Source: a virus | Lineage: Duplodnaviria > Heunggongvirae > Uroviricota > Caudoviricetes | Strand: one strand, 5' to 3' | IMG/VR virus record: IMGVR_UViG_3300031577_000046 | Length of the DNA: 9,002 nt | In this document: positions 1 to 3,342 of the stretch, piece after piece | Numbering within the stretch: position 1 is the stretch's first letter | Layout of the letters: each line of letters opens with the position of its first letter | Translations under genes and position numbers: made by a program | The notes under the pieces: generated by a model | What the model saw: only the letters and a program-made list of their open reading frames with translations | Told to the model about the DNA's origin: nothing | The model's database searches: none

Positions 1-63
1 CGTCTGTTGAGCACATCCTGTAATAAGCATTGCCAGAGCGGCAGAAAACAACATTTTTTTCAT
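1..63 (-). CDS. iss: Bor/Iss-family outer-membrane lipoprotein (serum-resistance, lysogenic-conversion protein); N-terminal 21 codons only, gene runs off the left edge
   Basis: Reverse complement of 1-63 translates to MKKMLFSAALAMLITGCAQQT: basic n-region, hydrophobic core and lipobox ITG|C, as in lambda Bor / E. coli Iss recalled from memory. AGGA Shine-Dalgarno 7 nt upstream (plus coords 71-74 as TCCT). An in-frame upstream ATG at 76-78 would add MQDNK but has no SD. Confidence 0.8.
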   Translation of the reverse strand, partial: MKKMLFSAALAMLITGCAQQT

Positions 64-79
64 CTTATTATCCTGCATT

Positions 80-108
80 GTTAAAAACGGCAGAATCCTA
101 TGTGACAA
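80..108 (-). promoter_or_regulatory. Candidate sigma70 promoter for bor/iss (-35 TTGTCA, 17-bp spacer, -10 TTTAAC on the minus strand)
   Basis: On the plus strand TGACAA sits at 103-108 and GTTAAA at 80-85, 17 bp apart, just upstream of the bor/iss SD. The hexamers are imperfect (5/6 and 4/6 to consensus); this is pattern matching only. Confidence 0.25.
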
Positions 109-555
109 CAATTAAACGATGGTTAAATGGATTGATGAAAATTAAAACAATATAGGTGGACGCTCAGACTATTGGAGGGAGTCGGAGACACTCAGAATTA
201 TGTGAATGAAATAAACCGCTCTATCTGTCCATTACCCTTTTAGCTGCGCTGTATCGTCGCCGTATTCCCGCATTAACCATAACCGTAGCCCGACGGGGAA
301 TTCCTTCTGCGTGAGTGTGCGGGAATAATCAAAAACGATGCACACCGGGTTTTTACCGCGTTTATGGTTCGCGGGTTTGTCCCTCATGCTCGCCAGTCCT
401 GTGCGGGGGTGGAAGAAACAGGACACTCACTCAGATTCTTGTGGGCACGATGCTATGCCTTTCTGGATTATCCCGATGCCATTCATGCAAGGCGCTGTAT
501 CAGACGTTCGTCAGAGCTGTCAGGCTGACGGGTCCTCCCGGTGGGGTGGCCTGCC

Positions 556-575
556 ACGGGGCGGTAGCGGCGCGG
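556..575. other. Candidate cosN (terminase nicking site); predicted 12-nt cohesive end GGGCGGTAGCGG at 559-570
   Basis: ACGGGGCGGTAGCGGCGCGG aligns with lambda cosN ACG|GGGCGGCGACCT|CGCGG recalled from memory: identical flanks (ACG, CGCGG) and 7/12 identity in the overhang. It lies about 180 bp upstream of the small-terminase start, the same distance as cosN to Nu1 in lambda. Confidence 0.5.
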
Positions 576-580
576 AAAAA

Positions 581-745
581 GGCTAGTTTTTGAAATTTCA
601 TCCGTCATCACCACCAATGCAACTAATTGATATTCCAGATATTTTATTTTTTCTGGTGTCGATTTTGATTGTTTTTTGTTCATCACTAACGCCGTTTATC
701 TAAAGTTGTTCGCAAGATGCATGTTTAAAACATTCTGGAGCGGGT
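581..745. other. Candidate cosB-like region (small-terminase / IHF binding) between cosN and the small terminase gene
   Basis: AT-rich non-coding stretch with short repeats (GATAT twice at ~630-645, GATTTTGATTG at ~661-671) and an inverted repeat CCAGA-N12-TCTGG (~635-656). Position matches lambda cosB; individual binding sites cannot be assigned from sequence. Confidence 0.35.
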
Positions 746-1240
746 ATGGATCGGGAGTTGAAAAATCTGACGCTGAATATCAGTCAACTGGCGGCACTGT
801 CAGGAGTACATCGCCAGACTGCTGCGGCAAGGCTGCAAAATCTACCCGTTGCAGGGGGGCATGAAAGCAACCTCAAGCTTTATCGGGTGGTTGATATTGT
901 GTCGGCATTTCTGGCATTACCACCGCCGGTTGCAGAAGGCGAAATGGACGCGCATGAGCGCAAAGCCTGGTATCAGTCTGAACGTGAGCGTCTTAAGTTC
1001 GAACAGGAAACGGCACAACTCATTCCGGCCAGTGATGTCAGACGGGAGTTTGCCATCTGGGCAAAAGCGGTCGTGCAGGTGCTGGAGACATTACCGGATA
1101 TTCTGGAACGCGACTGCGGTCTGCAGCCTGCCGCTGTGAGCCGTGTTCAGTCCATTATTGATGATCTGCGCGATCAGATAGCCCTGCGGGTGACCGAAGC
1201 AGGTGCGGATGATGAGGAGGAATTACAGCAGGAGGAGTAA
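746..1240 (+). CDS. nu1: Terminase small subunit, lambda Nu1 family (164 aa)
   Basis: ATG at 746 with GGAG at 737-740 (5-nt spacer). N-terminal HTH-like segment LNISQLAALSGVHRQTAAARLQ and overall resemblance to lambda gpNu1, acidic C-terminus. Sits immediately upstream of and overlapping (TAATG) the large terminase. Confidence 0.85.
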   Translation: MDRELKNLTLNISQLAALSGVHRQTAAARLQNLPVAGGHESNLKLYRVVDIVSAFLALPPPVAEGEMDAHERKAWYQSERERLKFEQETAQLIPASDVRREFAIWAKAVVQVLETLPDILERDCGLQPAAVSRVQSIIDDLRDQIALRVTEAGADDEEELQQEE

Positions 1241-3342
1241 TGCTGAATCAGGAAACCGCAAAGGCAGCACGAACCGATTCAGGTTATATCCTTCGCGCAC
1301 CGAGACGAATGCGGGTTGCTGATGCCGTCGCTCAGTATATGCGGGTACCCATGGGAGCCGGGAACTCAGTCCCGTGGGATCCGCTGGTGGCACCGTATGT
1401 TATTGAACCGATGAACTGTCTGGCCTCGCGTGAATACGACGCAGTGATATTTGTTGGCCCGGCACGAACCGGCAAGACTATCGGCCTGATTGACGGCTGG
1501 GTGATTTACAACGTGATTTGCGATCCTGCGGATATGCTGATCATTCAGATGACGGAGGAAAAAGCCCGCGAACACTCCAAAAAACGACTCGCCAGAACGT
1601 TTCGCGTCAGCCCGGAAGTGGTCAGTCGCCTGAGTCCGAACAAAAATGACAACAACGTTTATGACAGAACATTCCTTACTGGCAACTACCTGAAAATCGG
1701 CTGGCCGTCAGTCAATATCATGTCCTCATCAGATTATAAATGCGTGGCGCTGACGGATTATGATCGTTTCCCGGAAGATATTGATGGTGAGGGGGATGCC
1801 TTCTCTCTTGCCTCAAAACGTACCACCACATTTATGTCCAGTGGTATGACGCTGGTGGAGAGTTCCCCCGGCAGGGATGTGAAGGATGTGAAATGGCGAC
1901 GGACTTCACCACATGAGGCTCCACCAACCACGGGGATCCTGTCGCTCTATAATCGTGGCGATCGCCGTCGCTGGTACTGGCCCTGTCCACACTGTGGTGA
2001 GTATTTTCAGCCCTGCGGCGATGTGGTTGCTGGTTTCCGTGATATTGCCGATCCCGTGCTGGCAAGTGAGGCGGCTTATATTCAGTGTCCTTCCTGTTCC
2101 GGACGGATTATGCCTGAACAAAAACGTGAGCTGAACGGACGTGGGGTCTGGTTGCGGGATGGTGAATCCATCAATGCGGATGGCAGTCGTTATGGTGATC
2201 CCCGACGCTCACGTATTGCGTCATTCTGGATGGAGGGTCCGGCTGCTGCTTACCAGACACTCTCGCAACTCGTTTACAAACTGCTTACTGCAGAACAGGA
2301 ATACGAGACAACCGGAAGTGAAGAAACACTCAAGACGGTTATCAATACCGACTGGGGATTACCTTATCTTCCCCGCGCCAGCATGGAGCAACGAAAAAGT
2401 GAACTGCTTGAGCAGCGGGCAGAGCCAGTTCCTTCCCGCAGTGTGCCGGATGGCGTTAATTTCCTTGTGGCGACAGTGGATGTGCAGGCGGGACGTCATC
2501 GCCGTTTTGTGGTTCAGGTAACGGGCTATGGCAGCCGTGGCGAACGCTGGATTATTGATCGTTACAACATCACGCAGTCATTGCGCGGTGACAGCGACGG
2601 GGAGAGCCAGCGAATTGATCCGGCCAGCTATCCGGAAGACTGGGATGTCCTGCTGACGGATGTTTTTCATAAAAGCTGGCCGCTGGCCTCCGATCCTTCT
2701 CAACAAATGCGACTGATGGCAATGGCGGTGGACTCCGGTGGTGAAGACGGGGTCACTGATAATGCCTATAAATTCTGGCGTCGTTGCCGTCGTGATGGCC
2801 TTGGTAAACGTATTTACCTGTTTAAGGGCGACAGCATCCGGCGCGCAAAACTGATCACCCGTACATTCCCTGATAACACCGGACGAACGGGCCGACGGGC
2901 GCAGGCCGCAGGTGATGTGCCGCTCTGGCTTCTTCAGACGGATGCCCTGAAAGACCGGGTGAATAACGCGTTATGGCGTGACTCGCCAGGTCCCGGCTAT
3001 GTGCATTTCCCTGACTGGCTGGGGAGCTGGTTTTACGACGAACTGACGTATGAAGAGCGTAGCAGTGACGGAAAATGGAGTAAGCCGGGTCGCGGTGCCA
3101 ACGAAGCCTTTGACCTGATGGTGTATGCCGAGGCTCTGGTCATTCTGCATGGATACGAAAAGATCCGCTGGCCGGATGCACCGGAATGGGCGAGCCGGGA
3201 AACCTGGCTGGAGTGTGTCCCGGACAGTACCGAACCGTCACTCTCACCGGAACCGGTATCCACGCCTGTTAAAAAACAAAAACGGAAGAAAACAGTAACT
3301 GACGATGTTAACCCCTGGCTGACTTCCGGAGGATGGTTATGA
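1240..3342 (+). CDS. A: Terminase large subunit, lambda gpA family (700 aa)
   Basis: Walker-A-like VGPARTGKT at aa 72-80 (nt 1453-1479). Motifs CPHCGEYFQPCGD, WIIDRYNI and C-terminal GYVHFPDW...EAFDLMVYAEAL parallel lambda gpA (CPHCGEE, WLIDRQII, GAVHFP...EALDCFVYALAA). Start overlaps the Nu1-like stop. Confidence 0.95.
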   Translation: MLNQETAKAARTDSGYILRAPRRMRVADAVAQYMRVPMGAGNSVPWDPLVAPYVIEPMNCLASREYDAVIFVGPARTGKTIGLIDGWVIYNVICDPADMLIIQMTEEKAREHSKKRLARTFRVSPEVVSRLSPNKNDNNVYDRTFLTGNYLKIGWPSVNIMSSSDYKCVALTDYDRFPEDIDGEGDAFSLASKRTTTFMSSGMTLVESSPGRDVKDVKWRRTSPHEAPPTTGILSLYNRGDRRRWYWPCPHCGEYFQPCGDVVAGFRDIADPVLASEAAYIQCPSCSGRIMPEQKRELNGRGVWLRDGESINADGSRYGDPRRSRIASFWMEGPAAAYQTLSQLVYKLLTAEQEYETTGSEETLKTVINTDWGLPYLPRASMEQRKSELLEQRAEPVPSRSVPDGVNFLVATVDVQAGRHRRFVVQVTGYGSRGERWIIDRYNITQSLRGDSDGESQRIDPASYPEDWDVLLTDVFHKSWPLASDPSQQMRLMAMAVDSGGEDGVTDNAYKFWRRCRRDGLGKRIYLFKGDSIRRAKLITRTFPDNTGRTGRRAQAAGDVPLWLLQTDALKDRVNNALWRDSPGPGYVHFPDWLGSWFYDELTYEERSSDGKWSKPGRGANEAFDLMVYAEALVILHGYEKIRWPDAPEWASRETWLECVPDSTEPSLSPEPVSTPVKKQKRKKTVTDDVNPWLTSGGWL

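Follow-up and report, generated by a model that had tools for sequence, protein, structure and literature searches.

Positions 530 to 745 of the 9,002-bp stretch of DNA analysed here (referred to throughout as 'the window') very probably serve as the cos of a lambdoid E. coli prophage whose head module is of the Gifsy-2/mEp460 type, with a cohesive end that varies from the lambda sequence in its right half. Because the site found at 556-575 would be the prophage's cos, the window would span the junction between the two ends of the virion chromosome. The elements on which this reading draws are a cosQ, a cosN, an IHF site and a set of R-like elements, followed by genes for a Nu1-related small terminase subunit (TerS) and a gpA-family large subunit (TerL), and preceded by an iss/bor gene. 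The presence, position and conservation of these elements, and the family to which each terminase subunit belongs, are established directly, and they bear out the proposal, made in an initial annotation of this DNA, that the window spans the virion ends and that the phage packages by cos.

The cut site and its predicted ends

The core of the site (556-575, plus strand) reads ACGGGGCGGTAGCGGCGCGG, which divides into ACG (556-558), a 12-mer (559-570) and CGCGG (571-575), that is, ACG|GGGCGGTAGCGG|CGCGG, exactly as it was first described; its flanks and left half are those of both lambda and Gifsy-1. In its wider context it reads ...GACGGGTCCTCCCGGTGGGGTGGCCTGCCACG|GGGCGGTAGCGG|CGCGGAAAAAGGCTAG..., and the ends of the lambda record read ...GGTTACG / GGGCGGCGACCTCGCGGG... 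A degenerate pattern for such sites, ACGGGGCGGNNNNNNCGCGG, occurs a single time in the 9002-bp window, with 0 mismatches; shuffled windows yield a mean of 0.10 matches to the same pattern when two mismatches are tolerated. The cosQ, the spacing and the conservation of the surroundings rule out a chance match to GC-rich sequence, which was considered as an explanation.

To the left of the core lies the heptamer GGGTCCT (530-536, plus strand), which is identical to the cosQ of lambda, the packaging-termination signal of lambda-like phages. It is separated from the predicted top-strand nick by 22 nt (as compared with 23 nt in lambda), and its first base precedes bp 1 by 29 nt (30 nt in lambda), where base pairs are numbered starting with the overhang's first base. 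The conservation of these landmarks was followed in IMG/VR, using a scan in which the flanks were fixed and the right half was left free. Since such a scan (which also gave chance matches in unrelated GC-rich DNA) fixes the flanks by construction, loci were additionally fetched by means of their TerS protein, resulting in a set of 80 IMG/VR loci with a TerS 100% identical to that of the window. All but one of these (79/80) retain cosQ and cosN at the homologous place, with the same 12 nt between the conserved flanks (a spacing of sequence landmarks). The string CACG|GGGCGG is invariant in the 79 loci, and CGCGG forms the right flank throughout the set except in three cases (two with CGTGG and one with TGCGG).

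By homology with lambda, a 12-nt 5' cohesive end, GGGCGGTAGCGG, is predicted at 559-570 (plus strand). The nicks that generate it would fall between 558 and 559 in the top strand and, in the bottom strand, opposite 570/571, and the right end of the chromosome would carry 5'-CCGCTACCGCCC; if the homology holds, the site would be active and its overhangs would have this polarity. The cosN displays two-fold symmetry about 564|565 at 14 of 26 positions (10 of 26 in lambda), and this is the centre that is required for nicks staggered by 12 bp. That symmetry, together with CG dinucleotides, a left half and a 12-bp spacing that are those of lambda and Gifsy-1, and with the invariance of the landmarks in the 79 loci, argues against the alternative in which a real cos site is nicked otherwise than at 558/559 and 570/571 with a 12-bp stagger, leaving an overhang that is shifted or of some other length. 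The alternative appears very unlikely, although TerL shares only 25% identity with lambda gpA across 623 aa (BLASTP E 4e-19) and although Gifsy-2, which has a related TerS and TerL, carries 14-15 nt between the corresponding flanks.

The boundaries of deposited genomes bear on the same question from both sides. The record of phage Tritos (OV696610) is linearised exactly at the homologous ACG|GGGCGG junction, as predicted for 12-bp nicks; however, the accompanying paper states no method for the ends and is silent on cos and termini, and the record boundary is for that reason not countable as experimental evidence. The mEp460_4F5 record (LR595868.1) begins CCACG|GGGCGG, 5 nt further left than the homologous nick, and could be taken to favour a different placement. 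The records of mEp460, Ayreon and ev081 have an arbitrary start, 25 bp before TerS. The cosN of mEp460_4F5, GGGCGGGAGCGCGG, is also 3 nt shorter than that of all other relatives, a shortening that probably arose in assembly at the virion ends, although a genuine deletion could also account for it.

The closest relatives of the region are mEp460, Tritos and prophages of the E. coli ST131 type (with GGGCGGGAGCGT or GGGCGGGAGCGG as the overhang), which are 95-97% identical to it and share its cosQ, flanks, cosB elements and IHF site. They differ in having G rather than T at bp 7, and the G of the window at bp 12 is a minority allele among them. In comparison with other cos sites, which the initial annotation had called for, the flanks and left half are identical in lambda and Gifsy-1; both the left half and the spacing differ in Gifsy-2. 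The cosN of Gifsy-1, read here as GGGCGGCAGCGT (in agreement with its published differences from lambda at bp 8, 9 and 11), has bp 8-11 (AGCG) in common with the window and differs from it in a C at bp 7 and a T at bp 12; unlike the window, Gifsy-1 combines a true TerS of the Nu1/phage-21 type with head genes of the lambda type. Gifsy-2, in contrast, is the studied phage with the closest head module, sharing the TerS family, a gpA TerL and the ClpP-capsid arrangement, but its cosN, CCACGGGTGGCTTCGGGCTCGCGGG, has a left half other than GGGCGG, and GGTACTCC replaces the cosQ GGGTCCT. Upstream of its TerS, the Gifsy-2 sequence (NC_010393.1, 17985-18060) reads GGTACTCCCGGGCAGGGGGCGCCACGGGTGGCTTCGGGCTCGCGGG. 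The 14-15 nt between its ACG and CGCGG flanks imply that overhang length is not uniform across phages of the DUF1441 type, and the cohesive end of Gifsy-2 may differ in length from that of the lambda type.

An 82-aa open reading frame (338-586, plus strand) crosses both cosQ and cosN and matches phrog_17397, a family with no assigned function (E 5e-47). The members of phrog_17397 are probably ORF calls over conserved cos DNA; it would be strange for the virion ends to split a gene.

The cosB region

Immediately to the right of cosN, and before the first R-like element, a conserved block (576-600, plus strand; AAAAAGGCTAGTTTTTGAAATTTCA) occupies the position of lambda I2, aligns with lambda GTTTTCGCTATTTATGAAAATTT, and is conserved in cos sites of both the Nu1 and the DUF1441 types. 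Beyond it the window is likely to contain a cosB with the architecture R3-I1-R2-R1, in agreement with the earlier description of a 'cosB-like' region following cosN: both a match to the IHF consensus and a series of R-like repeats are found in the position of cosB. The candidate TerS binding sites were identified by a search for direct/inverted/direct triples, which also recovers R3, R2 and R1 of lambda. Its best triple in the window comprises an R3-like element, TCATCACCA (605-613, bp 47-55, plus strand), an R2-like element, TCGACACCA (654-662, bp 96-104, minus strand, and so inverted relative to the other two), and an R1-like element, TCATCACTA (680-688, bp 122-130, plus strand); the exact boundaries assigned to these elements are tentative. 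The motif used to describe them, TC(A/G)NCAC, was defined after the sites had been seen. Between R3 and R2, as in lambda, lies an I1-like IHF site, TATCAATTAGTTG (620-632, minus strand), which matches the consensus WATCAANNNNTTR perfectly and is the sole match to it on either strand of the whole window, where 0.23 would be expected per 9 kb.

When the window is considered alone, the R-like triple only marginally beats shuffled sequences (12 of 300 shuffles for k=9; 39-59 of 300 for k=10-13). The assignment of this architecture is regarded as likely because of three comparisons. In a sister group of cos sites, TCATCATCAT, TCGACATCAT and TCACCATCAT form clearer triples at matching bp positions (about 46, 96 and 122), the first of these being found in Gifsy-like cos types at the position of the R3-like element. 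In an alignment to Gifsy-2, at roughly 50% identity, the conserved islands are exactly the three R-like elements: the Gifsy-2 sequences TCAGCACTGA, inverted TCGACACTGA and TCGACACTGA align with R3, R2 and R1 of the window, with TCAGCAC opposite R3 and with GTGTCGA of the R2-like element forming one of the islands, and the Gifsy-2 triple itself beats shuffles (0-14 of 300). In one relative (locus L118), moreover, the R1 site is TCGACACC, an exact inverted copy of R2.

A general repeat search did not report the R-like elements; conservation of cosB among close relatives was uninformative, nearly every column being conserved; and scans of positions 1-1300 against Rfam and for promoters and terminators returned nothing relevant. 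As compared with lambda, in which an IHF site likewise lies between the first and second R elements and the middle element is likewise inverted, the sequence of the elements is unrelated (CGTTTCC(T/G)TTC in lambda versus TC(A/G)NCAC in the window) and their spacing is tighter (bp 47/96/122 versus 53/109/155).

Two features of this region vary among related phages. Around the IHF core (614-640) the window carries private substitutions (ATGCAAC...TTCCAGA) that leave the perfect IHF consensus in place; in relatives, the core is bracketed by an inverted repeat (CTGTAAT...ATTACAG) that forms a palindrome, and this palindrome is broken in the window. In the cos group that carries TCATCATCAT (L053, L054, L101 and similar loci, bp 120-135 after cosN), the TerS gene begins near bp 130, with its ATG overlapped by the R1-like element; relative to that group, the window type (680-746 here) has about 58 bp inserted, with the TerS start at bp 188.

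The terminase and head genes

The gene for the small terminase (746-1240, plus strand) encodes a protein of 164 aa that belongs to DUF1441 (Pfam, E 2.7e-41) and phrog_141 (7e-74), with a predicted helix-turn-helix at about residues 12-31. Its start, at bp 188, lies 187 bp downstream of the first overhang base, closely matching both the distance of about 180 bp that had been proposed and the arrangement in lambda, where Nu1 starts at bp 191 and the TerS gene thus begins, in both cases, about 190 bp from the end. The accompanying description of this protein as 'Nu1-like' survives at the level of profiles and fails at the level of pairwise comparison. The TerS matches phrog_57, the family of Nu1, over its full length (8e-10), and Nu1 reciprocally matches the phrog_141 profile (5.6e-8). 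An hhalign comparison of TerS and Nu1, using small alignments built from cos-adjacent ORFs, aligned 136 colinear columns that include the N-terminal helix-turn-helix (probability 59.5%, E 8.9e-5). Pairwise BLASTP of TerS against Nu1, on the other hand, gave no match, and Pfam assigns DUF1441 and not Phage_Nu1. 'Nu1-like' therefore seems a reasonable term if it is taken to mean remote homology, as judged from these profiles, rather than membership of the Pfam family. A search of PDB sequences with TerS found no solved relative.

The large terminase gene (1240-3342, plus strand) encodes a protein of 700 aa in the gpA family, the family of the lambda enzyme, with both an ATPase and an endonuclease domain (Pfam GpA_ATPase, 8e-72; GpA_nuclease, 1e-85). 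Headful ('pac') packaging was also considered, and is ruled out by the gpA-family TerL; cosQ, cosN and the cosB elements are, in addition, all present. TerL is followed by genes for a head-tail adaptor, a lambda-family portal, a fusion of ClpP protease and major capsid protein, a cement protein, and tail proteins of the Z and U types, and all of the head-module ORFs in the window are intact. This head module is of the Gifsy-2/mEp460 lambdoid type, and the DUF1441 TerS and the Gifsy-2-type head with its ClpP-capsid fusion distinguish the window from lambda, with its Nu1.

At the opposite end of the window, positions 1-63 (minus strand) hold the 5' end of an iss/bor-type lipoprotein gene. The homologous coding sequence in E. 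coli prophages is annotated as 'increased serum survival lipoprotein Iss', and the gene is also identified as Pfam Lambda_Bor on an identical metagenome contig; it marks where the lysis/moron region, which comes before cos on the circular map, ends. The window accordingly opens inside a serum-resistance gene, a virulence-associated moron situated directly upstream of cos.

A scheme for the action of these elements can be proposed, each step being modelled by homology on lambda. After induction, the DUF1441-type TerS and the gpA-type TerL would act on concatemeric DNA, with TerS binding the R-like TC(A/G)NCAC elements at 605-613, 654-662 (inverted) and 680-688 and with IHF bending the DNA at 620-632. 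In this way a TerL dimer would be anchored some 47 bp further left, on cosN, where it would nick the top strand at 558/559 and the bottom strand opposite 570/571. Strand separation would then yield 12-nt 5' overhangs, with 5'-GGGCGGTAGCGG at the left end and its complement at the right. Packaging would proceed rightwards, taking up the terminase and head genes first, and would stop at the next cos in a reaction requiring cosQ (530-536); the ends would anneal and be ligated after injection.

Alleles of the cohesive end and their compatibility

The predicted overhang, GGGCGGTAGCGG, is not the end shared by lambda, 21, 434 and phi80 (GGGCGGCGACCT), from which it differs at 5 of 12 positions (bp 7, 8, 9, 11 and 12, with bases 1-6 and 10 the same). 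This difference had been pointed out in the initial annotation, and it was confirmed here against the ends of the lambda record. Differences of this kind have been described before. The lambda-like phages are defined by these ends, and differences at bp 7-12 are common among them (Feiss et al. 2015, PMC4669245). Natural variation is described for bp 7-12, with conservation of cosQ, the left half and the CG dinucleotides beside the nicks (PMC4669245, PMC12315714). The end of N15 departs from that of lambda at bp 9 and 12, and that of Gifsy-1 does so at bp 8, 9 and 11 (PMC4669245; Vahanian et al. 2017, as cited in PMC12315714); a further example is the putative GGGCGGCGCGCT of mEp213 and LLS (Vahanian et al. 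2017, as cited in PMC12315714). Since variation at bp 7-12 has already been described, a 'non-lambda cohesive end' is not unusual, and the overhang of the window is a new allele at a well-described kind of site, a natural right-half variant.

Close homologues of the region are abundant. The window is 97% identical to prophages of many E. coli genomes, and a homologue of its 65-bp cos core is found in 2,438 of 5,426 complete E. coli genomes. Relative to the common mEp460/Tritos allele, GGGCGGGAGCGT, the window differs at bp 7 and 12, and a single substitution (G to T at bp 7) separates it from GGGCGGGAGCGG, which is frequent in E. coli prophages. Among the right halves found behind cosQ in lambdoid contigs of IMG/VR, that of lambda, CGACCT, was the most numerous (51), followed by GAGCGT (13), CGCGCT (8), CAGCGG (6) and GAGCGG (4); CTGGCT, CGGACT, CGGCAT and AAGGCG were also encountered. 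Within the loci of identical TerS, the overhang varies solely at bp 7 (G/C), 11 (G/A) and 12 (T/G), giving at least five right-half alleles (GAGCGT, GAGCGG, GAGCAT, GAGCAG and CAGCGG), or six if the TAGCGG of the window is added. The occurrence of at least five alleles under one identical TerS indicates that the sticky end is polymorphic within what is presumably one packaging specificity. As C, G and A were already found at bp 7 behind cosQ, the T of the window completes the set of four bases at this position, which lies next to the dyad. The window contributes one more allele of cosN bp 7-12, and the occurrence of all four bases at bp 7 fits the published evidence for a right half that is not read by terminase.

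The exact allele is itself rare. With its flanks it has 0 matches in IMG/VR; in GTDB species representatives it has 9 matches, all of them chance occurrences in unrelated high-GC taxa; and in the 5,426 complete E. coli genomes it is absent, the best match (31/32) being to GGGCGGGAGCGG. The sole find, made through an exact-protein look-up, was on a 93-kb metagenome contig in ENA that is identical to the window over 4.8 kb (0 mismatches), the T at bp 7 included, and that is recorded for 2 samples. That contig may be the window's own assembly, and to that extent its agreement counts for less against the suggestion that the T is a sequencing or assembly error and that the true allele is GGGCGGGAGCGG, as might be imagined for a single substitution from a frequent allele that is unseen in large collections. 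With an identical TerL present on twelve contigs as well, such an error is exceedingly improbable.

The same rarity might instead be the mark of a decay mutation, in an inactive homologous relic belonging to a defective prophage or to one in which T at bp 7 impairs cutting, and only 9 kb of the prophage is visible in which to judge its condition. The genes within those 9 kb, however, are intact (TerS, TerL, adaptor, portal, protease-capsid fusion and tail genes), and many phage contigs in IMG/VR encode exactly this TerS (100% identity). Changes at bp 7-12 minimally affect lambda terminase (PMC4669245), and C, G and A all occur naturally at bp 7 behind cosQ. A relic is unlikely on this evidence, and the reading of the site as a prophage cos with a right-half variant overhang is preferred.

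Lambda and N15 terminases show no specificity for cosN, mutations in its right half have little effect on cutting by lambda terminase, and packaging specificity, including that of helpers and cosmids, resides in the TerS-cosB pair (PMC4669245). The annealing of ends was evaluated using DNA nearest-neighbour parameters. A duplex of the window's own ends is calculated at -18.3 kcal/mol (-19.0 for the ends of lambda), as compared with -9.7 kcal/mol for a window end with a lambda end, in which only GGGCGG (bases 1-6) pairs and nothing is paired beside the bottom-strand nick. Pairing with the GAGCGT or GAGCGG allele is intermediate, at -13.5 to -16.4 kcal/mol; with a 2-base mismatch between ends, cyclisation has been reported to persist with a loss of about four-fold (PMC4669245). 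On these calculated energies it is reasonable to conclude that the window's ends would not anneal productively with those of lambda, and the prediction to that effect in the initial annotation is supported in silico.

The further suggestion, that the overhang matters for helper and cosmid compatibility, holds for the annealing of mixed ends and not for recognition, which is set by cosB and TerS (PMC4669245). Given where specificity resides, the overhang would bear on hybrid chromosomes and in vitro joining rather than on recognition by a helper terminase. For work with helpers, cosmids or satellites, the relevant determinant would be the Gifsy-2/mEp460-type cosB/TerS pair, and the overhang would be of concern solely where a chromosome has two unlike ends or where ends are annealed to lambda arms in vitro. 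The accepted picture of cos packaging is unchanged. A more speculative idea, and a rather unlikely one, is that the right-half alleles are selected rather than neutral, limiting cross-packaging between co-resident lambdoid prophages. If so, chromosomes that start at the cos of one prophage and end at that of another could not cyclise, and the same bar would apply to satellites that use a foreign cos.

For purposes of annotation, the site indicates where the prophage genome should be linearised, with an expected virion left end of 5'-GGGCGGTAGCGG. A cos of this type, with GGGCGGGAGCGG, is also found together with spanin and terminase genes on a circular 'plasmid' of 44,611 bp (NZ_CP148393.1, E. 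coli Z1323HEC0010), whose length is that of a phage genome; it is probably a circular prophage that had excised and was assembled as a replicon.
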